Shown here: positions 36,881 through 64,000 of the stretch, one piece after another
Layout: each line of letters starts with the position of its first letter
Numbering within the stretch: the first letter of the stretch is position 1
NCBI GenBank assembly: GCA_036172245.1
Contig: JAYWIR010000033.1
Location: forward strand, 1 to 64,000
Origin: Raillietiella orientalis
Taxonomy: Eukaryota
DNA: 64,000 nt
Reading direction: 5' to 3'
Notes under the pieces: generated by a model
What the model was told of the DNA's origin: nothing
The model's input: only the letters and a program-made list of their open reading frames with translations
Databases searched by the model: none
Program-made: the position numbers and the translations under genes

Positions 36881-36892
36881 AATCTTCGTGGA

Positions 36893-37868: not shown

Positions 37869-38375
37869 TCCACGTTTCGTTGCTCCTCTGGTTTAGTTTG
37901 GCTGCCCACCGCCTTCGTCTCGTATCAGTCATGTCGACTGAAGCACCAGGGGTGCCAACACTATCGCGTAGCACCGGAGGAACTCTGCGGGCAAGTCGTC
38001 CTTCCTTGGAGCTTTACGCCTCTTGAGCCTTTGGATACCCGAGAGGATTTCGACGGTGGTAAAAGCCTCGTCGAGACTTAAATTCTCCTCCTTTCCTATT
38101 ACTGAGGCATCATCCGGAAGCAAGCTCCGGGAGGCGTCTCGCTCCGGGGAGGCCCTGGTGTAGAGGGAGGAATAAAATCTCACGAGGTGTTGTATTCTAG
38201 CCGGGGCCGAGTGCTTCCGGCTCTGGTCGACCAGCAAGCTGGCCGACCTGGATTACCAAACTTTGCGCTCACCCCCGACGCGGTATTCGGCCAGACGACG
38301 GACGTTGGGGTCCTTACGTAATTACGGGCATACTAATACGCCCTTTCGTTGCGGACCCGCTGCCCAGATCCTGCC
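37869..38375 (-). pseudogene. E-like ORF2 linker resuming at the GFG site, deleted to a short C-terminal piece
   Basis: RTPNVRRLAEYR, FYSSLY, KRRKAP, then AKLNQRSNETW. Confidence 0.85.
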
Positions 38376-41549: not shown

Positions 41550-44500
41550 CGGGCCTGCAGAAAATCTCTGCTGTTGGCTACACCCTCTATGAAGCCACGC
41601 GGAAGCTATTGCAAGAGAATCGCATTCAGGGTTTTCGAGACACATTGACCACTCTGTCCAATCACCCGTTGGTGCGGTTTTTCCTCAGAACGGAGAATCC
41701 TCGGCGAAGGCAAGGCACCACGGCTGCGCTCATCAGCATGCCCGCCTGATTCGAGACACATCCTGGACATAAGGAGGACCTGAAGACGATTATGGAGACC
41801 ACAAAAATCAGAAGAGACGACGACTTGGACAGCTTGAAACACAGGATACAACTGTTTGCAAATATGCAATTCGGGGATAGGCCCCTGAGGCAGAAAAAGT
41901 ACCGGGAGCTGAACAACCAAGATCACTCACTGTCAAAGTACTTCGATCAGTACGAGAGTCGGTACGTCTTCAGCAACATAAAAGGGGAAGTCGGCGTGCA
42001 GCAGAAGAGAAATCTGGCAACAGATATCTTCTGCATCCAGTACGACGGTCAAGAGCGACAGTCGTCCGTGGATATCGTGGAACCCTCTCTCAGGCATTAC
42101 ACGAAACACTTCAGGCGACAACATCTCTGTCGCTCTAGTCAACAAGCCTTTCTGAGCTATCTCGAAAAGAGGACCAACGACCTCCAGCGCAACAGACTGG
42201 AGGAGGAATTCTCCCATCACGCACTATCAGCGGTACCTGCATGCCTACCTGCGCTTGTCCCACCAGTTTCCCCTCTGCATCCGAGAAGAAGCACGACTGC
42301 CTGAGTACTTCTACGAGACTAGGATGAGTTTGTTGCCGAAAGGAGGCGACCCAACCCAGATCGCTCAATGGAGGCCAAACTGAATCCTGAACTCCGATGC
42401 CAAGTGGTTGGCGAAGATCTGGTCCAACCGCTTAGGCAGAGTCATGTCGAAGCTCATCTCTCCGAACCAAACGTGTGCACTCGCTAAACGTAACATGTCG
42501 GGCAATGTCAAGTGTGCTCAGGCCACCGTCAGACTCAGCCGATACGTCGGCGAGAACCTGGTACTGGTGTTCACTGACATGGAAAAGGCTTTCCACTTTA
42601 TCGACCACGGGATGCTGCTGAAGGTTCTGGAGAAGCTAGGGCTTCCAAAACACTGCAGCGACTTCGTGAGGGCGGTACTCCAGAACCAGTACTGCCGGAT
42701 CAAAATCAACGACCAAGAGACGGCAGCAATCCGGATGGAACGGGGAGTCCGGCAGGGCGACTCGCTTACTCCGATGCTTTTCGTCATCTACATGGAGGCG
42801 ATGTCGTCCTTTATCGAGAAGAGCGGACGACTGCAAGGCATAAGTATCGATAGCCAGCGTCTTACCCATCTCCTATACGCTGATGATCTACTCTTCTTTA
42901 TCAAGGGAGAGAGAAATCAATGAGCGTTTCTGGATGTGGTAGACCTGATGAATAAAGGCCTGGGTCTAAAGATCAACGCCCAGAAAATCCAGATCTTGCT
43001 CGTTGGAATCCTCGATCTTTCCGCTCTGGCTAGAAGAGGATTCCGAACGGTGGAAACGGCCAATTACCTGGGTGTCTACATTGACGACGACTTCGCGTCA
43101 AAGCTATTGTGAACTGAGATCCTAGGAGAAACGGCCAAGGAATCAGCCAACTACACCCGAAAGGACCTTGGGATGAAGCGAAAGGCCAACATATGGAACA
43201 GAGTACTTCTTCCAAAAGTGCTCTTCGGGGCGGCCTTCGCGAGGATGAACAAGGACAAGACGAGGGAGTTCGAGAAGCTGCAGTAAAAAAACTGTGGAGT
43301 CACTATCGCATAATAGTGCGACTAAAACCCCTGTGTCGTCCCAGGGAAGAAGGCAATTCCGGGATAAAGTTGCTTGCACACACCATAGAAATCATGGATA
43401 CGCGAAACATCCTGGACATTGCCAATCACTGGGATGACTGGCCGTATGCGGAGCATAGGGCCTACGCGTTGTTGTGGAACAACTCGGAAGGCCTGATGAC
43501 TGCGCTGCTAGGCTGAGCAGGGAAATGGATGAAAATCGACCCAACCTGGACGAGGAAGCAACGGCTGGTGCGAAAGCACAAAATCAAGATCGCGCCGAAA
43601 AGTAGGAGACTCTGGCAGGACGAGTCCATCCTGGTAATCCCTTGGATGCTTCCTGTGTCGCCGGACACGAGAAGCTGGATCGACCAGCGGTCCAGAGTTA
43701 CCCTACAACGAATCCAGGAGTGGAAACGAGGAAAGGACCTACATCACACTCGTATACTTAGGTATATAGAGATGATGTTAGGAAGGTTTAGTCATATGAC
43801 CCGCGAGGTGTGACTTAACCACAACGGCTTTGCGTGGGCCAGGGTAATCAAAACAAACCTCCGAAAATTAATTCAGGAAGAAGACCGTGACATCAGTGTT
43901 CTCCAGGAAGCCGCCGTTCGCTACGGAAGTGACCGGGTCAACCTGCTAGCGATCGGCACGATGCTCTGGAGGAGTGACTTTCCGCCTGGCACCCAGGATG
44001 ATCTCCTGATGTTTTATCATGAAGGAATCCAGAGTGGGTCCCGATTCCAGTACTATACCGGAAGACGGGAAGATCGAGACTGCAAGGCATGTGGAGACAA
44101 CGACACGAGACTTCACGTCTTGACGTGTTCCACATTGCTACACAACTGGCTGATCCTGGAAAGGATTATCGGACTCACGAACAGATCCGTTATGGAGATC
44201 CTCGCCGGGATGTTTTAGGGGGATGGTATTGTTCCCTGTTACATTCCCATGGTGAGGGAACCATCGGCCTCTTCATCACCACCATAGATGTGCGGTGGTG
44301 GAAGATCAGGAAAGCCAGGAGAGCCGCACCTGCGATGGAGATCCTGCAAGGACTCATCAAGGAGATCGGCATCATTAATTGTGAAGGAATCCATGCGTGG
44401 ACCTACCGATTCATCCTGGTGTGGATTGAAGACGACTCCCGGAACCGAAGATCTGCAAACCCACTCCGAAAGCAGAACTTGTAATATCCCGAAGGACTTG

Positions 44501-44604
44501 ATAATGATGTTAAGTGGGTATGTTGTATGAATGTGATTATCTAATCAATGTGTTTTCAAAAATAGAAAATAAATTCACCCCACCCTTTGTGGGACTTAGT
44601 GAAA
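41550..44604 (+). mobile_element. LINE lineage A: decayed ORF2 and 3' end (second copy)
   Basis: Direct homologue of 1-2857; RGVRQGDSLTP, YADD; AATAAA at 44568 plus CCCCAC-ccttt-GTGGGA. Confidence 0.92.
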
Positions 44605-45923: not shown

Positions 45924-46682
45924 GCGAGAACACGTCTGTACTGGGCGAGCGCATGAGATGGAATGCATATCTGGAGTGCGTCTATCGTATCCGTGGGGAA
46001 CATCGAGAAGTTGTTATGTCGCCTACCTACTTCGGCCAGCCGTCGAGGCCGCGGCGCGTAGCGTACGGTTCGCAATCACGGTCGTATCGGCCACCTGACT
46101 CTCATCTGGTGCGACTATATCGACCTGATCGTCGCGAACGTGCACGCATCAACCCGCGAGGACCTGGCGAATAGGTGGGCGAGGAAAGAAATTTTCCTCG
46201 CCCTCCGGCACGACTGGCTGACCAAGAAGGGCGTGCGTAATGTCCATCTGGTTGGAGGCAATTTTAAGGTTCGCCTAAACCAGATGGGAAAAATCACGAG
46301 CGGAAAATGGTCAAAGCGGTGCGCACGGCAGTGCACACCTGTAATTTGTTGGCCAGTAAACCGCGGATAGAGGACAGCATCGATTACGTGTTCCTTGATC
46401 AGCACCCTTGCACTCGTGTGGGCAGGCGCAGTGAGTTACTGTCCGAGTTGTCCGACCATCGCCCGAACGTGCTCCAGGTTCATGCTCGCGACAGGAACTC
46501 CTGCTCGTTAGCGTGGCGTTTGCCAGGACACTGGCTGAAGCTCCTGGAAGCGGCGAAACATCTCCGCACGTTCATAGGGAGCTTCAGGCTGCGCACACTC
46601 CAGGATTGGGACCGCTTCAAACGGTCCGTCCAGGAGCTCTGCTACCAGTTCCCTTTAGCTTGCATACCAGAGGTATTAGAGG
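45924..46682 (+). pseudogene. APE fragment from the ETH motif to the GFG-equivalent site
   Basis: DYVF, SDH, WRLP, FPLACIPEVLEV, the same length as FPLYRLPPGFGV. Confidence 0.85.
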
Positions 46683-48729
46683 TTTCCACCCGGGTATGAC
46701 CGTGGCGTTTATTGAAAAAATAAAACTCCACAAGACGTGGTACGAGGCCTTACTGACGGCCTAACACCGAACCTGCCGGGACGCAGCCCACCTTGACTCT
46801 CCTCGGCAGTGGAGGAAGATGTGTGAGAAAACAAAAAATAAAATAAAAACAAAGAAAAAACAAAGAGAGTTTGAAGGGAGGGGAAGGGATCACATTCCAC
46901 TGGAAGGAGTGTCCAACCTTCCCAGGATTCCCTCGAGGTCCATCAGCATTGAACCCAGCTGGGGCCATCCTGTAGCTCTCCGCATGCAGCAGACCGCATA
47001 CGGGATGACATTCCTCTTGATCTCGTCAAATCGTCCGTCGCGTGCATCGCTCCAGGCCGCCACGATGCCTCGGATGCAGCATGCGTCTCTGGGTTGGCTG
47101 CCCACCGGGAGCCCGAGGGTCGTCCCGAACCGTTCCCATAGGGTTCGGAGGGCTGCACAGTCAACAAGTAGGTATGGGAGCGATTCCCGCTCCCCACACT
47201 TTGCATATTCAGGCCATTACACTACCCGCGTCCAGTGGAAGCGCCGCGCGTTGAAGGGTAAGTCCCAGGGCAACAGTAGCTGCGCCGATTCTTGCCACTT
47301 CAGGGGGAGGAGCCTGGATCCGATGAGAACTGGAAGCCACTTCAGGTCATCCGTCGGGATGCCGAGCACCTCGGCCCATCTCAGAATTCCACGCAAGAGG
47401 GCACTCGGGGTCGTGGCGTCTGCCAGTTCTCCCATGGTCCAACCGCTCCTTTTCTTCTCTCTGCCTGCTATACAGCAGGAGACTTGCCATTTCGGCTTCT
47501 GGCCGCTGGTTAGGGCCCTCCGTGGAGAGGACAGCGTCGAAGCTAATGGAGTGGTCTTGCCCACGTGCTCCTCGCGGGACACTCCAGAGTGTACTGCTGT
47601 GTGCAGCAGGCGTTGGGTACGAATCGCAGGCGGTTCTAGGTTTTTTTCTCTGCTGTTGTTTAAATTCGCCCAGGTTCCAACGGTTTCCTCCAGCCAGGCG
47701 GAGCAGTTCGCGGGGCTGCATACTATTCTACCGTTTTCTCTCACCAGGGCTTCCATGCGTCCGAGAAGGTTGCTTCTTCTTAACTTTCCGCCGCGGCACA
47801 AAAGATACGACGCAAGCCCTTGCGTCCTGGAAAGACGGCTGGCGAGGAGGAGGGACGAAACGCAACAAGGGGTGCTCCACAACTGCGCTGCGATGGCGAG
47901 AAGGCGCACTCGCAGCTGGATCTCCAAGCGCTCCAGTGTCACGAGTTCAAGACCGCCGTCCCGACGCGCAGCACATAAATCTTTCAGAGGCACACGAGGC
48001 CTCCCGCTGCCTTAGAGTGCTAAGCGAACGAGGTCCTTAGACCTCTTCTTCAACTGGGAGGGGACGGGGCAAACAAAAAGCAAGGTGCGGAGGATGAGGT
48101 CCGAGAACGCGTTCAAAACCGCGGCCCGTTACGGCAGAAGAAACTTGCCTTCCAGGAACGGGCCGATTGCCAACTACCCTTCCGGGAGACTACCTGACCA
48201 GGATTCTGCGAGACAGAAGTCCCCCAACAGGACACCCAGGTACTTCAGGCACCTGGCCGTGGGGATCCCCAAGAGGATCCAGTCAGACCGTCTACCAACG
48301 TCGCACCCACCGCTATCACTAATGACTTCGGCTTGTTTACCTGGAGTCCAGTCGCACGGCTTAGCAGATCGAAGAAATCCTCTACTGCGGCTGCCGGAGC
48401 AGACATGTGCAAAATCAGCAGAAGATCGTCGGCGTATGCAGCTACAGCGAGCGTGCCGGGGCATGAGCTGGGCAAGGCAGCCAAAGTCACTCTGTACGCT
48501 CTCAGCACCTACTCAAAGTAGGTGCTAAAAAGCCGAGGACTAAGGCTATCGCATCGCCGTATGCTTCGCCATACCGGCACGCCGTACGGCTATTTGTTTA
48601 CTGGAAGAAACGTTCATTAACGCATTCCGCCAGCAAGAGCGCAGGAAAGAGTGTAAAAACGGTGGAAAGCCCATGCGACCCAGAAGCTCCAAAAGAAGCT
48701 CCTGGTCCACGCAGTCGCTCGCCTTATGC
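46683..48729 (-). mobile_element. LINE lineage Cx: ORF2 from HKAxDCVDQ to 3' end
   Basis: YADDLL, LCAARRDGGL, LKWQESA; terminal motif at 46683-46713. Confidence 0.9.
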
Positions 48730-49882
48730 GCTCGAAGGCGGACGTTTTTTCTCGGTGCTCCTTGTGCCAGGAAGTCTCCCCTAGTGCAAACGTCGTGTGG
48801 TTCGGTGGTCGATCAGGCAGCGATGCCTGACGCGACCACCAGGGATGGCTAGGTGGCGGCGGCAACGTCGTTCCCAGAGGCGATGTAGGCATGGGCATCC
48901 GCCCCTACAGAATCGGTCCCCACTACAGCGCGGGCGTAAAGCGCCGTTGTGTCGGCGCCATCGCCTGCAGTCGCCGCGGAATTGTCGGCCTATGTAGAGG
49001 AGGGGTATAACCCCTCATTGTTCTAGAAGTTAGGCAATCTTCATTCTTTAGAGAGCGCGCGCGCCTTCTCGAAGGGCATGCGCGCTCTCGATGTGAAAGA
49101 GGAGGAGCTCAGCGCTATGACTATCTGCAGCGGGGCTCAGTACGTTGAGGTCATCTGCAAACAAGCAGAGCTGGCCCAACGACTGCTTTTATTCCCTGTG
49201 GTGATGGCGACGCGCCGGCTCCTCCCCATTACAGCAGACCGTAGCATCATGGTCCACCTATTAAACGTGACCGCGCATATGCGCAAAGAACAGGTTCATG
49301 CCGCTTTAGAACAGTACGGAACGGTCCGCACGCAATGAACGAAAGTTAGTCCTTTTGATGACTACATGGGGCTGCAACACGGCCTCACAGCTGCACGCGT
49401 GACCGCTCGGGAGGGCTGCCCTCTTCTCAACAAACTGGTGGTCGATGGCGAAACCGTCGACCGAAGGTATGTGGGGAAGCCGAAATACTGCGACTTGTGC
49501 AATACGTCGGGGCACCTGAAAAAGAGGAGTCCCAACGTGCAGTGCCAAGTATGCGGCACAATGGGTCCCATGAAGGATGTGACCCCAAAAGAATCAGTGC
49601 GGATGGTTTCCAAGAGGAACCTTAAAAAACGCACCCTGCTGGTGCAGAAAAGGCTGGCGGAGAAAGCTGCCGCGAAGGCTGTGCCAGCCGCGCCCAAGAC
49701 CCAGGCCGCACCCGAGACCCCAACGTACAACGCCGAACAAGTCAAGGAAAGCAGCCACAAGCCTAGGTGGCAGCTGGCAACCGCTAAAAAGAGCAAAAAG
49801 GAGAGCAGATTGGAGAACAAACTCGCGTTACGCCAGAAAAAATAGCAGGCAACCGAGCAGATTAAAGCTTGCACTTTTGTCG
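48730..49882 (+). mobile_element. LINE lineage C: 5' end and ORF1, interrupted by G
   Basis: 5' GGCGGACG at 48737; YVGKPKYCDLCNTSGHLKKR. Confidence 0.88.
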
Positions 49883-52584
49883 TTTATTACCCGGTTGCGC
49901 CGGGACGTTTATTAGAATATCAACTGAGAACTGTGTTCCCAGGCAAGGGGAACAGAAAATGGGGAATAGATTTCCCGGAACGCAGTCCGGACACACTAAG
50001 AGTTCGGAACGGGAGGGGGTGGAACAATAAATAAATAAACTGGGTGGGGGGGAGGGGACAGGGGTATACCGTCTAACCGTTCCTATTCTCAGAACCGGTG
50101 GTGAATGCCGCCGATCTCCATCCTCACTTCTGCTCCAAGATGTGGCCACCCGGCAGCCATTTGCAGGTTGCAGGCTGCGGTGTCGGGGACCGATGTTGGG
50201 ACTGCTCGCATCTGCAATACGTGGCCGGCCCTGACAATGGCGCGGACGCAGCAGATGATGGCGACGACCGCTCCAAGAGAAAGATCGCCACGCGTGTAGA
50301 AGCGGCGCATCCAATCCAGTGCGGTGTGTCCAGGGTGCAGGAGCGCTGAAGACAGCCGCCGCCACAGCTCCTGGAGGGCACCGCACTCAAACACCAAATG
50401 CGGAAGCGATTCCACGGCTACGCATTTGGAACAGTTCGGGGAAGCATCTCCCATGAAAATCAGGTGCGCCCGCTGATTGCAGTACAAACCCCAATGCACC
50501 AGCAGAAAAGCGTCCTGTTTCCACCCAAGGGGGAAGAGAGTCGCGTCCAAACACGCAGAAGAGACCACAGGTTCATCGGTGGGCACCCCGAGGAGCTCAC
50601 TCCACCGGACAAGCCCCTGTGCAAGAATGCGAGGTGTAACAGCGTCTGCCACTTCGCAAGTCCGCCAGCCGCCCAGCAGGCGGGTTTCGCTTGAGATTTC
50701 GCAAGCAATCTCCCACCGCGCAAGGCAGGTCACTGTCGTCTCGCACCATCAGTGCACACAGTGCTTCGGCGAGTAACGTAGCGGCTAGGCGTTTCCACTG
50801 GTCCTGGTCTTCCAGCACCTCCCCCACTGGACAGTATGGGGAAAGTTCCACGCAACGGAGTTCCAAACGGGACACATCCTGTTGCGCTGCCCAGGACGAT
50901 AAGGCTTCCTGCCTCCAGGCGTTGAAGTTCGTCGGCCGGAAGGAGATCCACTCATGCTTTCCCAGAAGAGTGGCGAGCTGCATCAAAGGGAAGCCGAACC
51001 CTCTCTGGGCGCGCTCCGTGCGCATATGCAACGAACGAAGTCCGTCGCCACCCGTGCTGCGCCGCAGCAGCAGCCGCGCTGGAGCACACCAGGGAGTAGT
51101 CCAGAGCTGCGCACAAAGTGCCAGCATGCGGAACTGCACAAGCAGTCCGATCCGCTCCAGCGTCAGGATGCCTAATCCTGCATCCCGCCGAGGAGCCGCC
51201 AAGTCCTTCAGGCGTATCCTGGACCTCGCCAGTCCCCACAGGGCGTTACGCAACAGGCGTTGCGCCCGGCGCTTAGCCGAGTAGGGAGGGGGACAAACAA
51301 AAAAGAGGGGACGGAGGAGGGGGGCAACGAAAATGTTCCACACGAAGGCCCGTTCCGACAGGAGAAACCTGCCTCCTTGGAACGGGCCCAGAGCAGTCTC
51401 GGCCTTGTGAAGGCAGTCCGACCACGCTTATGCAGGACATAAGGCGCCCAAGGGAACGCCGAGGTACTTCAAGCACCTGTTCGTGGGGATCCTCAGGCGG
51501 ATCCAGTCGGACTGCCCCTCCCACGTAGAGCCAACCGGTACAACGGTTGACTTCGTCCTGTTTACGCTCAGGCCCGCTCCCCGACGAATGAGCTCGAAGA
51601 AGTCCTCAAGGTGGACATGGGCAGCAGCAGGAGAAGGTCGTCAGCATAGGCGGCCACGGCCGGTGTTCCCGGGCAGGAGCTCGGCAGGTTGGCCAGCGTC
51701 AGCCTGTACGCCCTCAGCATCAACTCAAAGAAGATGCTGAAGAGCAGGGGGCTTAAGCTGTCTCCCTGCCTGATATCCCGCCGTATGGGAACACCGTATA
51801 CGTGACGCCCGCTGAAAGAGATACAGCATAACGCGTGGCGCCAGCAGGAGCGCAAGTAGGCTATGAGGTGCGTCGGGAGGCCTAGGCGTCCCAGAAGCTC
51901 CAGAAGGAGGTCCTGGTTTACGCTGTCGAACGCTTTGCAGAGATCGACGGCGACCGCTAAGGCTCCCGGTGTTCCATCGTGCCTTGAACACCGCCGCTTT
52001 CCTTTGGCAGCGGCGATTTCGGCTGCCTGGCTCTGCTGCGCCACGCGCTGCTGCAACTCGAACCATGTTCGCGCGAAGAAGAGATTCGCGTCCATGGACC
52101 GCCCCGGAACAGTATACGTCTGCTCCGGACTTACCAAGGAATCTGCGATTCTCCCCAGGCGCGCGACCCATAGCCTGGAGAACAACTTGACGTCCGAATT
52201 CACCAATGTGATCGGACGCCAGTTGCTGAGGTGGCGCAGATCACAGCCTTTCGGCAGGAGCCGCACCTTTGCTGAGCGGAAAGAAGCGGAAACATCTCCC
52301 GTCTCACGCATCAGCGAGGAAAGGCTTAGCACCAGGGGGACGAGCTCCGCCTCGAAGCACTGAAAGAACTCCGCGGGCAGGCCATTCTCCCCAGGCGCCT
52401 CATGCCTCTTCAGGCCCGCTATGGCACAAGATACTTTTTCCGGCGTGAAGGGCCAATCCAGTCTGGCGCGTTCCTCCTCGTCGATAGCAGGGTTGCCCCT
52501 CGGAAGAAGCAGCTCGGAGAGACTGCGTTCCGTGGGCTCCTCCGCGTACAACGAGGAGTAGTAGCGCTTGACAGCGCGGTACAC
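49883..52584 (-). mobile_element. LINE lineage G, 3' half (linker, RT, C-terminus, 3' end)
   Basis: VYRAVKRYYSSLY, WRPITLVNSD, DLCKAFD, RQGDSLSP, YADD, CSKCVAVESLPHLVFEC. Confidence 0.95.
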
Positions 52585-52672
52585 GGCGGACGCAATTGTT
52601 GCGCGCTCCTTGAATGGGGAGTTTTTATTTTCTGGTGTTTCGTGTGTGTTTCGCGGCCGTTGACAGGCAGAA

Positions 52673-54035
52673 ATGCCTGTTAACGCCGCAGTTTCAGGTG
52701 AGGGAGGCGGGAAGACCGCGTCTCCCAAGCCAAAGGAGGTGGGATCACGCCCCACCACTTCTTCTGAACCCGCCACTACGGCGAGGGCCTGGAGCGCGGT
52801 GGCAGCGGGGGAAACGCCCGATGTCGCCGCCGAAATCCAATCCTACATCCAGGAGGGCTACAATCCGGCCCTCCTGTACAAGGTAGGCAATTTATATTTC
52901 CCGTTAAGGGCGAGAAAGTTCGGCAATGCCATCAAAAAGATGGGCATTGCCGACCATGAAATTCTTTGCCTCTCTATACGGAGCGGAGGGCAGTTGGCGG
53001 AGCTCATCTGCAAGGATGCAGCTCTCACCCACAAGATGCTCTGCACGTTCGTACAATTTGAGGGCAGGAATTTACTATCACACACGGTGGACCACTCCAT
53101 TGTGGTCCACCTAACAGGGACAACAGTGCGGATGGATGAGAACGCCATCCGCGCTGAACTGGAAAAATGTGCAAGCGTTTTCGCGATTTGGAGAAAGCCC
53201 AACACCTTCGGAGTGAGCGGTGCATTTAGTGGGCGAGTAGGCGCGCGCGTGACGTTTCGAGAAAGCGTACAGCTTCCCCACAAGCTCCAAATTGGCGACC
53301 AGTTGGTCCACATTTGGTTTGTGGGGAAACCTAAATTCTGTGGAAACTGTAAGTCGTTCGGGCATTTGAAAAAGCGGTGCCCGGACGCGGTTTGCCCAAC
53401 GTGCGGCGCGAAGGGCCACACCAAAGTGATGTGCCCGATGAACGTCGCGCCACGTCCAACAATCAAAGCGTGCAGCGTGGCCATCAAACGCGTGCCGGCG
53501 ATCGATACTCGCTCCGCTGACGGATCGATGCGACGTGACGTCACGTCAGCTGTTCAAGCCGCCGCCGCGCGAACGCCGACGCCGCGACGCCTGCGTGAGC
53601 AGCGACGACCGGGACTTCAACAAGGCGGCGGAAGAGTTGGCAGCCATGCTCCAGCAGCCTCCCAAGGCCCAGAAGAAGGCCTTGAGGTGTCCGGCTGAGG
53701 CGAAAGGACCGGAGACTTCCGAGTCCGAAGCCGAAGCCGGCAAGGCTCCGGCTGTCGCTCTCCCGAAGCGCAAAGCGGGCCGCAAGGTAGGCAACCCGCG
53801 GCGCTCCGCACATCCACCGGCGGAGGAGGAAATGCGGTCGGACCACGACGACGGGGAGGCGATGTCCGCGAGGTCTCGCGACTCCTCGCCGGAGACGTCG
53901 CTGGCCAAGCAGGAGCCTCCAACCACCACCACAACCACCGACGGACCGCCTCCTTGAGAGCAACAGCCCGTCGCAATGGATACACAACTCCCGCCTGCTA
54001 AACAGCAGGCGGAGGACGGTAAGCAAGCACAATAA
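52673..54035 (+). pseudogene. D ORF1, gag-like with two CCHC knuckles (one frameshift, one premature stop)
   Basis: CGNCKSFGHLKKRC, CPTCGAKGHTKVMC; frame change near 53530; TGA at 53955; likely true stop TAA at 54033. Confidence 0.88.
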
Positions 54036-54916
54036 ACACACCAACGCGTGGACTCTCCTCCTGCCGGCGACTGCGCGTAATCTGTTGGAACGTCAACGGG
54101 TTGCGCGACGACGGCAAGAGGAGTGAAGTGGCCGCCAGCCTGCGGGACTTCGACCTGGCGCTTCTGCAGGAGACGCACGTTCTCCACGCAGGGGAGGCCC
54201 AGGAAATCGAACGGATCGCAGGCGGGCGGCTCGTATACCAAAACGGGAGAGACCACACCCGCGGTGTGGCTTTCATGCTGAAGCCAGCCGTCGTTAATGC
54301 GTTGCGCGACGTGCACTTCGACGGGGAAGGACAAATCGGGCAGCTTGGTGCCAAGTGGTCCGACGCGATCGACCTCGTCGTGACCAACGTGTACGCGCCC
54401 GGCACGAGCCACAGGCGCGGGGAACGCACTGCGTTCTTCGAAGGCCTGCGGCGAGATTGGCTGTCCGAAGCAGACATGCGAAAGGCGCACCTCATTGCCG
54501 GGGACTTTAACGTCCGCCTGCTGGCAGGTGCGCCCGACATTCGCGCACAGCTGGTCAACGAGATGTGCGCTGCCAGGCACGCGCGCAACTTGTTGGCCGG
54601 TGACGCCGGGACGGAGACGAGGATCGACCACATGTTCCTCGACAACCACCTGTGTTCGCGGGTGGGAAATCGAGGGGCAGTGCCATCCGAACTTTCCGAC
54701 CATCCCCGGCTGGCGCTAGAAATACACCCGCGCGGTAGAGGTCCACCCTCCACAGCGTGGAGTTTGCCAGGGGACTGGTTGCGCCTCGAAAAAACAGCGC
54801 AACATCTTCGCTCGTTACTGCAAGGCTTCCATCTGCAGACGCTCGCGGACTGATACGACTTGAAGAGCTCAGTCCGCGAGTTCCGCGACCAGTTTCCCCT
54901 GTACCGTCTCCCTCCA

Positions 54917-54926
54917 GGTTTCGGCG
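54917..54926 (+). repeat. Candidate target-site duplication of E (partner at 60578-60587)
   Basis: GGTTTCGGCG on both flanks of E. Confidence 0.75.
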
Positions 54927-54957
54927 TTGCCACCCGGGTACGCCCGGGGCGTTTATT
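54927..54957 (-). terminator. Element 3' terminus: AATAAA followed by GC hairpin (best-preserved example)
   Basis: Reverse complement reads AATAAACGCCCCGGGCGTACCCGGGTGGCAA; 6-bp stem; function inferred. Confidence 0.6.
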
Positions 54958-55131
54958 GATAAACTTTACATGCGTGGTACAAGGCCCCACCACGGCCGTA
55001 AACACAGGACCTGTCGGGACACCGGGACGCAGCCCGGCGTGGCACTCCCCGACAGAGAAGGGGGATGGGGATGAGACAAAAAGTAAAATAAAAAGAAACA
55101 AACAAAAAGAAGTTGGAGGGCAGGGAAGGGA

Positions 55132-58100
55132 TCACTGGTCGCTGTGGGGAGGGCCCATCCGTCGAACGAAGCCCTCGAGGTCAGCCTGCATATTCCCCAG
55201 TTGGGGCCATCCGGCAGCTCTTCGCAAGAAGCGTTTGGCATACGGGATGACATCCCTCGCCTGTGGACCCACTCCTTCGTTGTTGGCGTCGCTCCATGCC
55301 CCCACGATGCCACGGACGCAGCACAAGGCTGCGATGGCTGCGGCTGGCTGCAGTGCGTCCTTCACGAAGAGGGGCCGAAGAACGTCTCTGGGGGTGCTGC
55401 CTGTAGGGAGACCGAGGGTCGTCCCGAACCGTTCCCAAAGGGGTCGGAGGGCAGCACAATCCACAATAAGGTGGGGAAGCGACTCCCGCTCCCCGCACCT
55501 GGCACACGCAGGATCCACAGCTCCCCTCGTCCAGTGGAAGCGGCGCGCGTTGCAGGGTAGACCCCAGTGCAACAAAAGCAACGCCGACTCTTGCCACTTG
55601 AGGGGCAGGATCCTGGATTCCTTCATCACCGGGGGCCCCTTCAGCTCATCCCTGGGGATGGCGAGCAGCTCGCCCCATCTTAATAATCCTCGCGGCTGGA
55701 CGCTCGGGGTCGAGGCGTCGGCCAGTTCTCCTGTTGTCCAGCCGCTGATCAACTTCTCCCGTCCCTCGATGCAGCAGGAGACTTGCCACCTTGGCGTCCG
55801 GGTAATGTGAAGTGCCCTCCTTAGGAAGGGTAGCGCCGTAGCTAGGCAGGTCGTCTCTGCCCACGTGCATCTTGCTGAACTCTCCAAGAGATTCCGCAGC
55901 GTGCAGCGGGCGTAGGGGCTGCATCGGAGACGATTCCACGTTTCGTGGCTTCTCTGGTTGACTACTGCCCACGTTCCAATATTCTCCTCCAGCCAGGCGG
56001 GGGAGTTGGCGGGGCAGCAAACCATCCAGCTGTTCTCCTTGGCCAATGTTGCCATGCGCCCGAGCAGTGGGCCGCATCTTCGCATCTTCCGGCCACGGCT
56101 CAGAAGAAAAGACGCGAGTCCATCGCACCGGGACACACGGCTGGCCAGGAGGCGGGCCGGAGTGCACCAAGGGGTGCTCCACATCTTCGCTGCGATGGCG
56201 AGGGTTCGCCACCGCAGCTGCTTTTCCACGCGCTCCAGCGTCAGGAGGCCAAGACCGCCGTCCCGACACGGAGCGCACAAGTCCTTCAGTGGGACTCGGG
56301 GCCTCCCCTTGCCCCAAAGGGCGATACGGAGGAGGTCCTTCGTCCTCTTCTTGGATTCCACGGTGGGGGGGCAAACAAAAAGCAAGGGGCGGAGGATGGG
56401 GCCGCGAAGGCGTTCCAAACCGCGGCCCGTTCCGGCAAGTGAAACTTGCCTTCCAGGAACGGGCCGATCGCCGTCTCGACTTTTTGGAGGCAGCTGGACC
56501 ACGCTTCCGCAGGGGAGTAGTCCCCCAACGGCACACCAAGGTACTTGAAGCACCTCGCCGTGGGGATCCCCAGACGGACTCAGTCCTGCTGCCCTGCCCA
56601 CGCCGCACCTATTGGCACAACCGACGACTTCGCCCTGTTAACCTGCAGTCCGGTCCCGCGGCTGAGCAGATCGAAGAAGTCTCCGACCGCCTTTGCCGGG
56701 GTGGACATTGGCAACAAAAGCAGAAGATCGTCGGCGTACGCTGCTACGGCGGGCGTGCCGGGGCACGAGCTCGGCAATGGGGCCAAAGTCACCCTGTACG
56801 CTCTAAGCACCAACTCAAAGTAGGTGCTGAAGAGCAGGGGGCTGAGGCTATCTCCCTGCCTTATGCCCCGCCGCACCGGCACGCCATACACCTTTTGACC
56901 GCTGAAAGAGACGGTAATTATCGCATTCCGCCAGCAAGAGCGCAGGTAGGAAATCAGGGAGGGTGGAAAGCCCATGCGACACAGGAGCTCCAAGAGAAGT
57001 TCCTGGTCTACACAGTCGAACGCCTTGTGGAGATCGACTGCGAGCGCTAGGGCCCCCTTCCCCGCCCGGGGGTCCCTTCCCAGCCCGGCTGGCGGCCTTA
57101 ATGTGGGGTTGCCGACTTTCCCTATCCCTTTCTTCTCTCTTCTCTGCAGGTGCACCCACGTGCTTGCGAAGAAGAGGTTGGCATCCATACTTCGCCCGGG
57201 AACAGCATAAGTCTGCTCCGGGCTAATTACGGATTCTGCCACCTGCCCCAGACGCGAAACCCATAGTTCTGCTATCAACTTGGCGTCCGTATTCACGATC
57301 GTGATCGGACGCCAGTTCTTTAAATCCCTGAGGTCTCCTCCTTTCGGCAGGAGCCTCACTCTGGCTGACCGAAACGAGGCGGGAACATCGCCTTCGTCTC
57401 GGATCAGCCTGATCAACTTAAGCAGCAGGGGTGCCAGCTCTTCCGCGAAGCTCTGAAAGAACTCCGCGGGCAAGGCGTCTTCCCCTGGAGCTTTACGCCT
57501 CTTGAGCCTTTTGATACCGGCGAGAATTTCGCCGGTGGTAAAAGGCTCGTCGAGGCTTTCCATCTCCTCCTCCCCTATTGCCGGGGCGCCATCCGGAAGC
57601 AAGCGCCGAGAGGCGTTTCGATCCGGGGGCTCCCTGGCGTAAAGGGAGGAATAGAAACTCCGCACGAGATGCCGTACCGCCGCCGGGGACGAACATTCCC
57701 GGCCCTGGTCGTCCAGCAAGCTGGCCGACCCGGATTGCCAGGCTTGGCGTTCGGCCCCGGCGCGGTACTCGGCCAGGCGACGGACATTAGGGGTTCTCTC
57801 GTACCTACGAGCCTGTAAATAGGCCCGATGGTTGCGAGCACCCTCGCCGAATCCGGGGGGCAGGCGATCCAAGGGGAACTGCTCACAGAACTCGCGGACC
57901 GATTCCTTAAAAAGGTCCCAGTCCTGGAGATTCCGGAGCGTGACACCTCTCAGGTATTCGCGAAGGTATTCCTTGGCACCTGAGAGTCGCGTCCAGTCCC
58001 CCGGCAGACGCCAATCCCTGGATGGCGGTCCCTTGTCACGAGGCCGCATCTCGAAATTTAACCGGGAATGGTCCGACAACGTCGACGCAACCCTCCCCCG

Positions 58101-58730
58101 TTTGCCGACCCGTGAACACAGGTCAGCGTCGAGGAAGACGTGTTCGATGCTGCGGACCATTCCCCTCTCACCCGCGAACAAGTTGCGCGCACGCATGGCG
58201 GCGCACAACTCGTTCATCGCGTTCTCTTGTGTTTCTGGCTCACCTGTTAGCAGACGGAGATTGAAATCTCCCGCTATCAGGTGAGCCTTCCGCACGTTCG
58301 TGTCCGCCAGCCAGTCGCGCTTCAGGGAATCCAGCAGCCTGGTATGGTCGCTGTATCCCTGTTTACCGCTGGGGGCGTACACATTCGTGACGATCAATTC
58401 GATCGAGTCGGACCAGCTGAGAATCAGCTGACCGACCCGACCGTCGTCATCGAAGCGCACGCCCTTCACGGCCGCGTCGATGGCCGGCTTCACGAAGAAC
58501 GCGACCCCGCAGGTGTTGCGGAGGCCGCACCGCCAATACAGCCGACCCCCTGCGATCGTCTCGATCTCCTGGGCGTCTGCCGCGGTGATCACGTGGATCT
58601 CCTGCAGCAGGGCCAGGTCGAGCTCACGCAGGGTGTCGGCCGTATCTCGCCTGTTACCGTCGTCGCGCAGTCCGTTGACGTTCCAACAGGCGGCGCGAAT
58701 CCGACGGCGACTGGCGAGCCCAGGTGTTAT
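55132..58730 (-). pseudogene. E ORF2: APE endonuclease and reverse transcriptase (about 1200 codons; one stop at 56580, one frameshift near 56400)
   Basis: CWNVNGL, LQEIH, NVYAP, AGDFN, SDH, KAPGED, WRPI, DLHKAFD, RQGDSLSP, YADD, KYLG, CARCGERESLPHLIVDC. Confidence 0.95.
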
Positions 58731-60481
58731 TCCTGGGAAGATGGCGATGCGGCGTCCGCCACCTGCTGGGGCGGGACGCTAGGCGGAGGAGGAGGGTCAG
58801 GCGCTGCGTGCACCTGGTCCCCCTCCTCCATGGGTAACGGCGCGTCGAGGGGGTCACCCTTGAGTGGGGTCGCGCCTACCTGTTGGCCCTCCTCCATGGG
58901 GGCGGGCTGTTCAGGCTCGGCGACTGCAGGGAGGACTTCGCCCCCCTGCTCACCCTCCTCCATGGGGCTCGCCGGCTCGACGGCTTCCGAGCGTGGGAGT
59001 TCCCCCTCCGGGACTCCCACGCCACCGCTACCTTCCTGCTTCTCCTCCTCGCTGGTGGAGGGGAGGCGCCTCCTGGGTTTCTGGGACTTGCGTCCCGACT
59101 TCCTGGGGGGTGCCTCCGAGGAGGAGGATGCACTTCCGGCCCCCAGGTCCGACGCACCTGTGGGGGCCTTTTTCGCGGGAGCCGGCCTTCGCACGGCCTT
59201 GCGTGAGGGGTTCTCACGCTCCGCCAGCGTGGCCGCGAGCTCCTCCGCCGCCTTTGCGAACGCGGCGTCCGCAGTGTCGACCGGCGCGTCGCGCGGCTCA
59301 CCCTCTGTGTAAACAGAGGGTTCGTCGTCGCGAACCTCGGGCGCGGCGGAAACGGCGAGGGAAGGCTCGTCGCCCCGGGTGGCAATCTCGGGAACGGCTA
59401 TGCGCTCCAGTGCTACCGTACACTCCCGCATGGTCTTAGAGCGCGGCCCAGGTTTTTTCGCCTTGCCGGCTGTCTTTTTTACCGCTTTTGCGGGTTCCGC
59501 GGGGGGCACCTTTTTCTCCTTCCTGGCCTTGACCAGCTGCCAGCCGTCTTGGACTCCCGCGTCTTCGGAGGGTTTTTCTTCCGACGCCTGTGTGGGAGGA
59601 ACAGGGGCTAGCGGCTGCTGCCGGGCAGTATCTCTTTTTGGTCTTTCGACCAGTTTACTGCGTTTTGCCTGTGCTTTTTTTGCAGCAGGCGGCACCGGAG
59701 TGGGGCGTTTAGGGCATACGCGGCGTACGTGGCCCTTCTCCCCGCATAAGTGGCACACAATGTTCGGGCACCGCTTGCGCAAGTGTCCTACTGCATTGCA
59801 GTAGCCACAAAAGCGGGGTTTCCCCACGTACCAGAGGTCTTCGACTTCGCCATTGACCTCTAGTTTGTGGGGAAGCCCACTCTCGTTCACCGTCACGCGC
59901 GCGGCGGCCTGCCCTCCGAAAAGGCTATCGTAGCCATCGAAGATTGTGGCCTTTGGCCGAAGCGCGTGAACATCCCCGTACTTTCTTAACTGATCACCAA
60001 CCGCAGACCGCGTCATGCGACTGGTGATCCCTGTCAGATGGACCACTACGGAGCGGTCCATCGTGACTGGTAGGATCTTGCGTCCGTCCACGTTCAGCGG
60101 GGTGGTTATCAAGCTTTGCGCCAAGGTGATGTCCTTGCAGACAACCTCAACGCGCTGACCCCCGCTTAGCACGGATAGACCGTCAAGGTCCTTTTCTAAC
60201 ACGTTGGCGTTCTGCAGCGCTTTCGAAAAAGCGCGTGCAGTTCGCCCGTCAAAGAGATTGCCTACCTGGTAAACCAAGCTGGGCTTGTACCCAGCTGCCC
60301 GGTAGGCCGCCATCTCGGCCATCGTTTCCGCGCTCGGCGCGGCCACCATGGCGCTCCAGCTCCTCGCCTTGAGCGGCGAGGGCGATTCCGGGGCGGACGC
60401 CCCTGATTCTGTAGGCTGTGGGGGTGGGCAAGCCTCCCCCACACCTACCTCCATCGTGGGGTCCTCAGGCATCGCTGCCAT
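58727..60481 (-). CDS. E ORF1: gag-like nucleic-acid-binding protein with two CCHC knuckles and an acidic/Pro-rich tail
   Basis: Uninterrupted frame; CGYCNAVGHLRKRC and CHLCGEKGHVRRVC; ATG at 60481 or 60472. Confidence 0.92.
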   Translation of the reverse strand: MAAMPEDPTMEVGVGEACPPPQPTESGASAPESPSPLKARSWSAMVAAPSAETMAEMAAYRAAGYKPSLVYQVGNLFDGRTARAFSKALQNANVLEKDLDGLSVLSGGQRVEVVCKDITLAQSLITTPLNVDGRKILPVTMDRSVVVHLTGITSRMTRSAVGDQLRKYGDVHALRPKATIFDGYDSLFGGQAAARVTVNESGLPHKLEVNGEVEDLWYVGKPRFCGYCNAVGHLRKRCPNIVCHLCGEKGHVRRVCPKRPTPVPPAAKKAQAKRSKLVERPKRDTARQQPLAPVPPTQASEEKPSEDAGVQDGWQLVKARKEKKVPPAEPAKAVKKTAGKAKKPGPRSKTMRECTVALERIAVPEIATRGDEPSLAVSAAPEVRDDEPSVYTEGEPRDAPVDTADAAFAKAAEELAATLAERENPSRKAVRRPAPAKKAPTGASDLGAGSASSSSEAPPRKSGRKSQKPRRRLPSTSEEEKQEGSGGVGVPEGELPRSEAVEPASPMEEGEQGGEVLPAVAEPEQPAPMEEGQQVGATPLKGDPLDAPLPMEEGDQVHAAPDPPPPPSVPPQQVADAASPSSQE

Positions 60482-60573
60482 CGGACACCAACGATGTTCC
60501 ACACTAAACAACACAACAAAAAACCGCTTCCTGTCGACTCACTCGGGAGCGAAGGAAACACACGTCCACTCGC

Positions 60574-63552
60574 CAAGGGTTTCGGCGGAGGGCTGAGGAA
60601 CGACCGGGCATACCACCACGCCCGTCTTTACTCTAGGACTCCCGACGATCGACGCCTGGCGGAGTATAAAGCTGGGGCTGAGCGACAGACCTGGCATTCC
60701 GGGTCGCCCAGCCTGCTGGACGCCCAAGGCCAAGCTCCGGCGAGAATAAACCGCATCCTGCGGGACTATTACTCCTCCTTGTACGCGCGTGGAACAACGG
60801 AGCGCGCCGTGGCGCAGCGCTTGCTGCCGCAAGGCGCCCCCGCGCTGCAGGAGGAGCAGGCACATGAACTCACGGAGCCTTTCTCGATGGCGGAGACTGT
60901 CTCCGCCATCGGAAAGCACCGAAAGAGAAAAGCACCAGGGGAAGACGGTCTGCCAGCGAAGTTCTACCAAGGCTTCGTGGCGGAGCTGGCCCCCCTGGTG
61001 CATCGGCTATGCATGCTGATCCGAGAACAAGGGGACGTCCCAAAATCGTTCCGGTCAGCTAGAGTACGTCTCCTGCCGAAAGGAGGAGACAATCGCAACG
61101 TAGGCAACTGGCGTCCCATCACAGTAGTGAATGCGGATGCGAAGTTGCTTGCCAAGCTTTGCGCTGAGCGACTGAAACGGGTGGCGGAATCCGTGGTGAG
61201 TCCGGAGCAGACATACGCTGTTCCCGGACGAAGCATGGAGGCCAACCTGTTCCTTGCCAGTACATGGTGGCAGTTGCAACAAAGCGAAGACCAGGGAAAT
61301 CAAGAGAATCCTGGATTCTCCTCTGACCAGGGAGGGGACGCCCTTCATGGAAGAGCCGCGCCCGGTGCCCTTGCGGTCGCAGTCGATCTGCGTAAAGCGT
61401 TCGATTGCGTCGACCAGGAACTGCTTCTGGAGCTCCTGGAACGCTTGGGATTCCCGGCCGTCTTCCGGGCTTACCTGCGCTCCTGCTGGCGCTTCGCTCT
61501 AATCAACATCTCTTTTAGCGGCCGGCACGTTTTCGGCGTGCCGGTTTGGCGTGGCATAAGGCAGGGTGACAGTCTGAGCCCCTTGCTCTTCAGCATCTAC
61601 TTGGAGCTGGTGCTGAGGGCATACAGGGAGACTCTGGCAACCCTGCCAAGCTCGTGTGCCGGCACGCCTGCCGTGTCGGCCTACGCCGACGACCTTCTGC
61701 TCCTGCTCCCCGGGTCCACCCCGGCGTCGGCGCTCGAAGATTTCTTTGAGTTGCTGCGCCGCGGGACGGGCCTCGAGGTGAACAGAGAGAAATGTTCCAT
61801 CGTTACAACATCACCACAACTATTCAACCATGCGGCGTGGGCCGGACGGCCGGACTGGATCCGCTTGGGGATCCCCACGGGCAGGTGCTTGAAGTACATT
61901 GGCGTTCCGTTGGGGGACTTCTGCGTTGCAGAAGCCTGGTCCGACCGTCTCCAAAAGGTGGAGTTGGCGATCGGCCCGTTCCGGAACAGCAAGTTTTACT
62001 TGCAGGAGCGGGCCGCGGTGTGGAACGCGTTCGCGGCCCCCCTCCTTCGCCCCTTACTTTTTGTTTGCCCCGCCCCTCCCATCATACAGAGACGGACCAA
62101 AGCCCTCTTGAGGACTGCCCTTTGGGGCACAGCGAGGTCGCGAGTCCGATTGAAAGACTTGTGCGCTCCACGCAGGTATGGTGGCTTGGGCCTCCTTACG
62201 TTGGAGCGCATCCAACTTCAAACAAGAATTCGAAAGTTAGCCCTTGCGGCTAGCTTATGGATGACGCCATTGTGCGATCCGGCACGGCTCCTCTCCAGAA
62301 GAGCGACCGGCTGCGAAGGATTGTCCTCGATCCTCGTGGCCTACCAGCGCAGCCTCTCCAACTGTGGCTTGGATTTGCGCCAGATGGTCGCCCTGATGAG
62401 GGAGAATACCTGGATCTCCTGCATCCCCGCGAACTGCACTGCCTGGCTTCAGGAGTCAGCTTCCGCGTGGGCTAAGATCAACGGAACGAGCGAGGCGGAA
62501 TACAACTGCCTACGACGAGGACCGTACGCTCGACAGCCGCTGCAGGATATTATCAACACGCCCCGGAAGTTTCTGTGGGCTTCTTTCAGCCCCCTTGCCC
62601 CGTTCTGTCCTCCCTGAAAAACAGTAGGAGCAGCAACGAGCTGGCATCGTGGGAAGTGTCCTGCCTCATCCGAGGCAGGAAAAAACCTTTAATGGCGTGG
62701 ACGACTCGTGAGCTCACTAACGCTGCCACTCCGAGCGTCCCGCCTCACGGACTTGCGCGCTGGGGAGAGCTGCTCGCAATACCTCCGGAGGAGGTGAAGT
62801 GGCCCCCAGCGTGTTGGGATTGCGCCACACTCCCGTTGAAGTGGCAGGAGACGGCGTTGCTATTTCTGCACTGGGGACTGTTAAGCAGAGCACGCCTGTC
62901 TCACTGGACACTGGGAAATGTGGATGCCCGTTGTGTCGAGTGCGGAGAAAGAGAAACCTTCCCGCATCTCACCCTCGAGTGTGTCGCTCTGGATGGACTC
63001 TGGATTCGAATCTCCCCAATCCTCCATCTTCCAGTAGGCGACCCTAAGGAAATTTACCGTCGCCTCTTTCTGCGTGACGGCCTGCGCCCCGCCGCGTCTC
63101 CTGCAGTCCTCTGCTGCGTGCGCGGCATTGTGCAAAGGTGGCACGCCAGAAGAAGAGGCCCAAGATGCAGGGACGCCATCCACTGGACGACGATCTCTTT
63201 AGAGACGGCGACAAGGTGGCGTCTACCTTTCACAATAAAAACAGAACTTGACTGCATCCTGAACAGGATGCGGAGGACCGACCCAGGCGCTCAGTGATCC
63301 CTTCCCGGCCCCCCCCCTCTCCCCATACAACTGTTTCCCTCCCCGTTATCTCTCTTTTTGTTTGTTTTTGTACTAGTTTTCCCTTCCTATGCACCTCGGG
63401 AATGGACCTAACCGGTCTATGCACCGGCAACAGACACGTCAACCAAGGTGGGAAAACCAAGTGTTTCCCACAATTAATTTTTGAAAGACTTTATTATGTA
63501 ATTTTTGTAAAAAATTAGAATAATAAATGCCCCGGCATATCCGGGTGGCAAA
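60574..63552 (+). mobile_element. LINE lineage D, 3' half (linker, RT, C-terminus, 3' end)
   Basis: Resumes GFGGGLRNDRAY; RQGDSLSP, YADD; one frameshift near 62600; stop at 63297; AATAAA at 63522 plus CCCGG-catat-CCGGG. Confidence 0.95.
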
Positions 63553-64000
63553 CTTCGGCTGCAGCCGATCATTCCTGGCCAGCGTCATCGAGCAGACAAG
63601 CCGCTACAGACTGCCAAACCTGGCGCTCGTCCCTTGCCTTATACTCCGCCAGACGCCGGACGTCCGGGCATCGTGAAAAGGTATGCGCCTGCAGATACGA
63701 TCTGCTGTTCGCGACACCCTTCCCCAAGCCGCGGGGAAGCAGGTGCAAGGGGAACCGGCAGCAGAACTCGCGGACCGATCTTTTCAGATCGTCCCAGTCC
63801 TCGAGTTCACAGATGGCGAAGCCCCGGAGGTGTTGGCGGAGATGCTCCGCCGCCTCCGATTTGCAAAGCCAGTCGGCCGGCAACCTCCAGACATTCATAG
63901 GAGGCCCTTTGCCAGGCTGGAGGAGCTCGAACTCCAGTCTAGGAAGATCCGAAATCGCGGACAGCAGATGCCCTCTCCAACCTACTCGTGAGAGCAGGTG
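63553..64000 (-). mobile_element. LINE lineage G, end of 5' half (APE C-terminal part and linker); continues beyond the window
   Basis: WRLPADW, FPLHLLPRGLG, LLDDAGQE*SAAAEV. Confidence 0.9.

Follow-up and report, generated by a model that had tools for sequence, protein, structure and literature searches.

Antisense nesting of L1-like LINEs at recurring coding sites of other LINEs in a 64-kb window of Raillietiella orientalis

A stretch of 64,000 nucleotides from Raillietiella orientalis (GenBank assembly GCA_036172245.1, contig JAYWIR010000033.1, positions 1 to 64,000 of the forward strand; hereafter the window) contains nests of long interspersed nuclear elements (LINEs) in which elements are inserted antisense into one another. 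The nesting, the target-site duplications, the restoration of open reading frames (ORFs) by excision, the recurrence of identical junctions and the independence of the events were all observed. Independent copies occupy the same target nucleotide in one orientation, and this combination was found within one window. The elements are probably L1-like, non-polyadenylated and target-site-specific LINEs. Their targets would be conserved coding motifs of other LINEs, and their integration would proceed by family-specific antisense target-primed reverse transcription (TPRT).

The region from 45.9 to 64 kb holds six nested layers, named A2 (+), Cx (–), C (+), G (–), D (+) and E (–). An initial annotation of this DNA had described six LINE layers with strictly alternating strand, and the joins were indeed present with small corrections. 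The innermost layer, E, is a full-length L1-like LINE of 5651 bp at 54927–60577 (–). It carries ORF1 (58727–60538, –, 603 amino acids (aa), with CCHC knuckles), the apurinic/apyrimidinic endonuclease (APE) and reverse transcriptase (RT) part of ORF2 (56580–58778, –, 732 aa) and the C-terminal part of ORF2 (55132–56637, –, 501 aa). Its 3' end consists of AATAAA, a GC hairpin and GGCAA, and poly(A) is absent. The 10-bp target-site duplication GGTTTCGGCG lies on both sides of E, at 54917–54926 in the GFG codons of D ORF2 and at 60578–60587. When E and one decamer were excised in silico, a 700-aa D ORF was restored, reading ...FPLYRLPPGFG/GGLRNDRAY... (here and below, a slash within a motif marks the junction, and bracketed letters are alternatives). 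D spans 52585–63551 (+) as a whole. Its 5' part (52585–54926, +) has the 5' end GGCGGACGC, ORF1 at 52664–53698 and the APE up to PPGFG, and its 3' part (60588–63551, +) has the RT, the C-terminal domain, the 3' untranslated region and a hairpin-GGCAA tail, with the last letters ...CCGGGTGGCAA. D is flanked by a 2-nt duplication, AC, at 52583–4 and 63552–3. The annotation had stated that removal of inner elements rejoins the interrupted hosts. This was found for D and also for G, with the correction that the 2-nt duplicate has to be removed together with D. G is then rejoined in frame as SAAAE/VYRAVKRYYSSLY in a 343-aa ORF, whereas its frames are mismatched when D is excised without the 2 nt.

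The outer joins were also found as annotated. The 3' part of G (49887–52584, –) runs from VYRAVKRYYSSLY in the RT to the 3' end with a hairpin-AA tail, and its upstream part (63554–64000, –) covers about aa 220–370 of ORF2 and continues past the window edge. The 3' end of G at 49887 lies inside the ORF1 tail of C. C (48737–49886, +) has a full-length 5' end (GGCGGACGT...) and ORF1, which is interrupted by G in its tail. The 5' end of C at 48737 adjoins Cx within the RT motif AVD/LHKAFD. Cx (46683–48736, –) is an E-family element extending from RT LHKAFD to the 3' end; it hosts C and is itself inserted in A2, its 3' end at 46683 adjoining that element. A2 (45941–46682, +) is an APE element that hosts Cx at the codon where D hosts E. 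It is also cut by J2 (–; 5' end at 45940) at about aa 60 of the APE.

The innermost element is the most intact, as the annotation had proposed. Stop codons within high-scoring segment pairs numbered 0 in 1836 aa for E, 2/1576 for D, 1/1001 for G, 5/342 for C and 5/651 for Cx. Yet E is nearly, not fully, intact, because ORF2 carries an in-frame TGA (56580–56640) and a 1-nt deletion. At the stop position, the aligned D, D', G, G' and Cx have TGG and Cx' has TAA (primed elements belong to a second nest, described next). That E and Cx' have a stop at this same position may mark a subfamily or result from parallel decay. The deletion lies in a C-run at about 56385, around 200 nt past the TGA, and could be an assembly error.

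Self-comparison and mapping onto the excised elements revealed a second nest at 4.2–18.1 kb in mirror orientation. Its G' (+) is split into a 5' part (5121–7772), which is 5'-truncated in ORF1, reaches about aa 370 of ORF2 and hosts D', and a 3' part (13198–15804) that ends in the ORF1 tail of C', the same site as for G in C. D' (–) consists of a 3' part (7773–10420), whose 3' junction falls at the nucleotide used by D in the G family, and an APE part (11989–13197), which is 5'-truncated with ORF1 missing. E' (10421–11988, +) is a 5'-truncated E-family element, and its 3' junction falls at the nucleotide used by E in the D family. C' (15805–16986, –) has a full-length 5' end and ORF1 and joins Cx' at the RT site, as C does in Cx. 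Cx' (16987–18124, +), an E-family fragment with RT and C-terminal sequence, is the host of C'. Next to this nest lies A1 (4213–5120, +), a paralogue of A2 whose E-type site is unfilled, with TGFG and YYNLY uninterrupted. A third cluster with recurring junctions was found at 37.2–41.7 kb. In this cluster, E'' (38376–40213, +), an E-family element with a full-length 5' end and ORF1, has its 5' junction with the E-like host H1 (about 37869–38375, –) at the GFG site. X (40233–40778, +) is 5'-truncated with a hairpin-AA tail; its host is the G-like H2 (40779 to about 41700, –), in which the 3' junction of X follows ...GCAGTCGA (AVD).

A conservative count over four sites gave four events of the E type, two of the D type, two of the G type and three at the RT site. 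The E-type site at the PPGFG codon of ORF2 was used in three host families (D-like, A-like and E-like), so the elements' own kin is included. The D-type site lies directly before YYSSLY, the G-type site lies in the ORF1 tail, and the RT site AVD/LHKAFD was used by C, C' and X, the last of which is outside both nests. The coincidence is exact to the nucleotide. The 3' junctions of E (54927), E' (11988) and Cx (46683) occupy homologous nucleotides in their respective hosts D, D' and A2. At this junction D and D' read ...CCAGGTTT(C/A)GGCG/; the full junctions are ...CCCGGGTGGCAA/CGCCGAAACCTGGAGG for E and ...CCGGCTGGCAT/CGCCTAAACCTGGAGG for E'. A2 and D are cut at one codon, 11 codons past QFPL and behind the first base of the next codon, and A2 belongs to a family other than D, with about 62–67% identity and differing nucleotides at the insertion site. 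D and D' have homologous 3' flanks, ACTTCGG(C/A)TGCA(G/T)CCGA... (ACTTCGGCTGCAGCCGAT... for D and ACTTCGGATGCATCCGAG... for D'). The G and G' junctions are alike (CCGGGTAA/TAAACGA...), and C and C' start at one point of the RT motif. Two further site types are repeated, that of F1 and F2 in J1 and J2 and that of J1 and J2 in A1 and A2. F2 (41821–44604, +) belongs to a distant LINE family with a CCCCAC/GTGGGG hairpin, and its 3' junction falls within the J2 (–) ORF1 tail; the F1/J1 pair at 1–4212 repeats the F2-in-J2 arrangement. As an explanation of the strand alternation, chance is untenable because identical sites recur.

On the 5' side the events differ. E and D retain their complete 5' ends and are flanked by duplications, whereas E' and D' are 5'-truncated and their hosts have lost about 320 bp and about 98 bp, respectively; a 6-nt overlap is seen where E' joins D'. 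Duplications, together with 3' junctions that are exact and 5' ends that vary, therefore form a TPRT signature at a defined nick. The nick contexts are ...GGCG/G, ...GAAGT/G, ...GTTTA/ and ...GTCGA/T. Because these contexts differ between families, we infer family-specific endonuclease recognition.

Thirteen 3' junctions were examined for orientation. Eleven of them (F1, D', E', G', K2, X, F2, Cx, G, E and D; K2 is described below) adjoin a LINE on the opposite strand, one is a same-strand junction and one lacks a clear LINE flank. This count leaves out two more 3' ends whose positions were not found, one near 18.8 kb and one near 22.9 kb. All full-length 5' ends, recognised by a GGCGGACGTG-type terminus, adjoin an opposite-strand LINE (7/7). 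These counts agree with the annotation, which had stated for the window that nearly every readable terminus abuts another LINE in the opposite orientation. Counted by site type, insertion is antisense in 7/7 (one-sided p about 0.008). At the junctions the priming strand is the host sense strand in every case, its 3' OH being extended into the antisense newcomer. The strand alternation of the six layers taken alone would have a chance probability of 1/32.

The differences at codon positions 1/2/3 were 0.23/0.18/0.34 between E and Cx and 0.22/0.21/0.37 between Cx and Cx' (p=2e-5), and a third-position excess was seen among the E-family copies, in C/C' and in Cx/Cx'. Therefore, these copies diverged as active lineages prior to insertion. 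One alternative to repeated targeted insertion is that units of insert plus flank were spread by homology, through gene conversion or through recombination of read-through complementary DNA (retrohoming by recombination). Same-family hosts are about 90% identical, which is sufficient for conversion, such units would inherit their junctions and duplication exactly from the donor, and the equal identity of G and D suits the transfer of G with D as one block. Nevertheless, this alternative is unlikely. E-type inserts sit at the same codon in hosts that are only about 62–67% identical at the DNA level and have unlike flanks (A2 compared with D, and also H1). The inserts found at one site represent lineages that are 26–29% diverged with a third-codon bias, and the 5' truncations with host loss and the 6-nt overlap at E'/D' resemble products of TPRT.

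A second alternative holds that one ancient, randomly nested array was copied by segmental duplication with inversion, so that the junctions were inherited and the alternation arose by chance. Collinear alignments do cross the junctions, with 90.3% identity between 7324–10426 and 64000–60899, 80.9% between 10421–13197 and 56478–53715, and 83.4% between 13198–17907 and 52486–47815; the A regions align at 82.5%. However, the identity between nests varies by layer from 0.74 to 0.91, being 0.895/0.906 for G, 0.906/0.907 for D, 0.741 for E, 0.798 for C and 0.736 for Cx. This heterogeneity is pronounced (chi-square 438, 6 degrees of freedom, p=2e-91). Relative-rate tests with E, G or D as the outgroup gave 112–130 private changes for D' and G' against 42–51 for D and G (p=1.5e-8 to 4e-9), the copies of the 4.2–18.1 kb nest having about 2.6 times the private changes of their counterparts. 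For the APE part the numbers were 42–43 against 20–22 (p about 0.01), and stop codons within segment pairs numbered 16 in G' plus D' against 3 in G plus D (binomial p=0.002). E has three long open frames yet is just 74% identical to E', and it cannot be an old decayed copy. Moreover, the E-type site is occupied in other host families as well, by Cx in A2 and by E'' in H1, the RT site recurs outside both nests with X in H2, and A1 is unfilled. A single duplication is disfavoured because the divergence of the layers and the decay of the copies are both unequal; judged from these comparisons, the two nests did not arise by duplication of a single one, and this alternative is very unlikely.

A mere regional or strand preference (for example nicking of the displaced non-template strand), local hot spots or a chimeric assembly is scarcely credible: an antisense bias of human L1 in transcribed units is described in the available text of PMC5717806, the region has rearranged 5' flanks and no read piece was listed across the nest junctions, but two to four independent events coincide to the nucleotide at each of four sites in hosts of about 5.5 kb, and misassembly would not be expected to produce a 10-bp duplication or to restore ORFs on excision.

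Several observations weigh against targeted antisense insertion as the whole explanation. First, two 3' junctions depart from the pattern. At about 20417, a degenerate D-like 3' end (–) is followed by a (–) ORF1 fragment near GYNPSL, explicable by a tandem arrangement or by insertion in sense orientation, and the 3' junction of K1 at 33358 is the one without a clear LINE flank. Second, G/G' and D/D' have equal identity (0.906) with a mostly neutral codon pattern, as would also suit a single duplication. Therefore, a block copy of G with D is possible, and this pair could reflect such a transfer; the rate asymmetry and the near-intact D ORFs run counter to it. Third, two 5'-truncated elements have a 5' flank unlike their 3' host, G' adjoining A1 and F2 adjoining H2. 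Therefore, rearrangements also shape the region, and simple nesting fails at some 5' ends, as in G' of the mirror nest, whose truncated 5' end adjoins A1 rather than C'. Fourth, most copies of the target motifs are unfilled, with E, G, G', A1 and H2 intact across the GFG site, and inspection by eye found no nick motif common to the different target sites. Membership of X in the C family could not be established. Among the matches listed, no piece of the Logan contigs, which derive mostly from paralogues, spans a nest junction. Finally, the evidence comes from one 64-kb window.

Targeted antisense insertion can be put as a series of steps. Each family would integrate by TPRT at its own site in the coding sequence of other LINEs. 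The E type would insert behind the GFG codons between APE and RT, the D type directly before YYSSLY, the G type within the ORF1 tail, the C/X type after AVD of the RT motif AVDLHKAFD, with additional sites for the F and J types. The nick used for priming would fall on the sense strand of the host element, and the newcomer would therefore be antisense. For E in D at the GFG site the nick is predicted after GGTTTCGGCG, and for D in G at the site before YYSSLY after GCCGAAGT. The 5' side would be completed either at full length, with a 10-bp or 2-bp duplication, or as a truncation with loss of host sequence. Repeated rounds of insertion would then give Matryoshka nests with alternating strands. 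The specificity is presumably provided by the encoded endonuclease, possibly aided by RNA of the read-through 3' flank that pairs with the target. Such pairing of read-through flank RNA is described in other site-specific LINEs. Pairing of the 3' tail itself with the target was looked for by eye and none was found. The antisense orientation appears to be favoured either mechanistically or by selection. It may arise because the displaced non-template strand is preferred when LINE DNA is transcribed, because sense insertions are selected against or because convergent transcription brings a benefit.

The annotation had gone further and proposed a guild of LINE lineages that use one another as obligate antisense targets. 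Specific antisense LINE targets and replicate insertions at the same nucleotide are supported. Strict reciprocity is not supported, as the motifs are common to several families, and neither are obligate use and a genome-wide scope; one terminus (33358) lacks a recognisable LINE flank. A more far-reaching and tentative possibility is a hyperparasitic retrotransposon network, in which the endonuclease of each lineage has evolved to recognise a hard-to-mutate motif of rival LINEs, own kin included, and in which the antisense orientation is functional. If so, each insertion would gain a safe haven and inactivate a competitor, much like R elements on rRNA. The antisense orientation could avoid capture by transcription of the host element or give convergent transcripts that silence the host copy. 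Self-feeding nests could build and maintain GC-rich LINE islands, possibly centromere-like. Conserved coding motifs of other LINEs, entered antisense and with nucleotide precision, would be a new target class and a natural example of transposon-against-transposon interference, and such homing would account for the growth of LINE-only islands without gene damage. Several new endonuclease specificities on one closely related scaffold would also help to understand how APE-type endonucleases read sequence.

Known target-specific LINEs occupy ribosomal DNA, telomeres, small RNA genes, microsatellites and one DNA transposon, and self-nesting is known in Zepp. R1, R2 and the telomere-specific (TTAGG) LINEs combine an exact 3' junction and a conserved multicopy target with a fixed orientation and variable 5' truncation. 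The elements of the window are like R1 and R2 in their junction behaviour and in a target that is hard to mutate away. On the other hand, the target of R1 and R2 is a host gene or repeat, whereas the target here is a conserved motif belonging to another, rival retrotransposon, and R2 has a restriction-like endonuclease, whereas the present elements have an APE. To our knowledge, there is no antisense rule for nested long terminal repeat (LTR) retrotransposons of plants. According to the accessible portions of PMC6911290, plant LTR retrotransposons nest in preferred regions of other elements; that nesting is integrase-based with a regional preference, in contrast to the nucleotide-exact LINE junctions found here. 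Zepp and ZeppL are L1-type LINEs of green algae (Chlorella/Coccomyxa and Chlamydomonas) that form nested clusters by insertion into existing copies, as the available passages of PMC8226300 and PMC3446292 describe, and the GC content of Zepp is 61% against 53% for the genome (PMC3446292). The likeness, as far as these passages go, lies in L1-type LINEs that insert into LINE copies and form GC-rich nested clusters in lower-GC surroundings. However, Zepp is described in that part of PMC8226300 as one self-targeting family with tandem arrays mostly of 3' ends, implying the same orientation. Here, unlike Zepp as so described, the cross-targeting of defined coding sites, with antisense junctions, involves at least five families, and several inserts are full length. 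In Xenopus, Tx1L targets the DNA transposon Tx1D, and other Tx1-clade LINEs (Keno, Kibi and Koshi) are target-specific (PMC4494074, in the portion available). The present elements share with Tx1L an APE-type LINE organisation and a specific target in a mobile element or multicopy sequence. The Tx1-clade targets in that description are a DNA transposon, small nuclear RNA genes and microsatellites, whereas here the coding sequence of LINEs is used, by a network of several families and with antisense insertion; neither such a network nor an antisense rule is described for the Tx1-clade elements. In the full-text literature searched, no antisense LINE-in-LINE targeting of coding motifs by several families was found described, subscription journals and Repbase reports lying mostly outside its coverage. 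Target-specific LINEs and LINE self-nesting are known; the homing of several families antisense into coding motifs of other LINEs would be new.

The assignment to the L1 superfamily is based on the proteins of E. Its ORF2 matches Pfam RVT_1 (PF00078, E=5.1e-22) in the RT and Exo_endo_phos (PF03372, E=5.2e-10, 39.9 bits, cutoff 24.5) in the APE. Among solved structures, the closest relative is human L1 ORF2p (8uw3_A, E=3e-51 over residues 353–718), R2 scores far weaker at about 1e-13, and L1 endonuclease chains match the APE at about 7e-7. The C-terminal part of ORF2 gave zf-RVT (PF13966) at E=0.011 and 16.8 bits, under the cutoff of 27.5, and a CxxC...HxxxxC pattern was seen by eye in its translation. 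For ORF1, zf-CCHC scored 23.6 bits in E (cutoff 20.8) and 19.4 bits in D, slightly under the cutoff; an RRM-like region was seen by eye only, and ORF1 matched no RRM model in Pfam. Protein relatives in public databases have an identity of at most 29%, except one metagenome protein at 71%, and the Atlas protein search returned generic APE/RT clusters only. The common anatomy is an ORF1 with CCHC knuckles, an ORF2 with APE, RT and a putative Cys-rich C-terminus, and a conserved 5' terminus of the GGCGGACGTG type. A (G)GCGGACGTGTTT-type terminus is seen in the seven full-length 5' ends, at 4212, 16986, 38376, 45940, 48737, 52585 and 60577. This terminus could be a transcription start or an internal promoter element.

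The usual poly(A) or A-rich 3' tail of L1 is absent from these elements. Instead, the families have a common 3' module of AATAAA, a hairpin with a 5-bp CCCGG/CCGGG stem and GGCAA or AA, directly followed by the target. Family F has another terminal stem (CCCCAC...GTGGGG) followed by GGGGAAA or AGTGAAA, at 2842–2857 and 44589–44604; compared with the CCCGG/CCGGG stem of the other families, the structure is kept and the sequence is changed. Because the stem keeps its position while its sequence differs in family F, the module suggests a structural element recognised by the reverse transcriptase. Folding was performed on six ranges, of which the F-element range missed its hairpin. The terminal hairpins folded as expected, with z-scores of –0.5 to –1.5 that are not significant for the 48-nt pieces. 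The E/D-type 3' terminus pattern was searched in metagenomes and appeared at two loci, neither with a LINE protein match. These loci (L001:234–265 and L002:6001–6032) have near-identical non-LINE contexts and are probably unrelated chance hairpins.

Three sequencing runs shared words with the window, one of them with a fraction of 0.41 of the words, and no RNA run was among those listed. On 45924–64000, 499 short Logan contigs were found from X1 (34 at 99% or above and 223 below 90%) and 1–2 from X2 and X3. Contig joints from 52482/52566 to 63701 are possible G-family copies without D, with sides of merely 26–39 nt.

Some local features of the elements were also recorded. At about 5105–5125, SYYNLY of A1 ORF2 passes straight into GNLY... 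of G' ORF1 on one strand. This joint looks like a 5' junction at a YYNLY/GNLY microhomology, and the 3' and 5' flanks of G' therefore come from different hosts. G' ORF1 (5121–5475) matches C' ORF1 (16304–16658, opposite strand) over 355 bp at 93.8% identity with abrupt ends, which suggests a chimeric ORF1, produced by template switch or recombination, or a local gene conversion. Family K is present as two inverted copies with about 75% identity, K1 (33358–34245, –) and K2 (37200–37868, +), and K2 ends antisense in the RT region of H1 near the LLPKG codons. The flank of K1 at 33358 was considered as a decayed RT LPKG site; the sole nearby signal was a CCHC knuckle on the + strand.

As a whole, the window is best read as a GC-rich island of L1-superfamily LINEs in a eukaryote-like genome. 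It contains no N, and its GC content is 54–64% in the LINE-rich parts (1–18 kb and 38–64 kb) and 39–48% across 18–38 kb. A tblastn search with the three open frames of E detected LINE fragments on both strands over most of the window, and searches of the window for Rfam families and tRNAs found none. Of the 48 ORFs at 22.6–33.4 kb, 46 had no Pfam family, one matched zf-CCHC and one matched Sclerostin below the cutoff. The lower-GC stretch at 18000–38000 contains decayed LINE fragments only, and a perfect 37-bp tandem repeat in two copies is located at 26674–26747.

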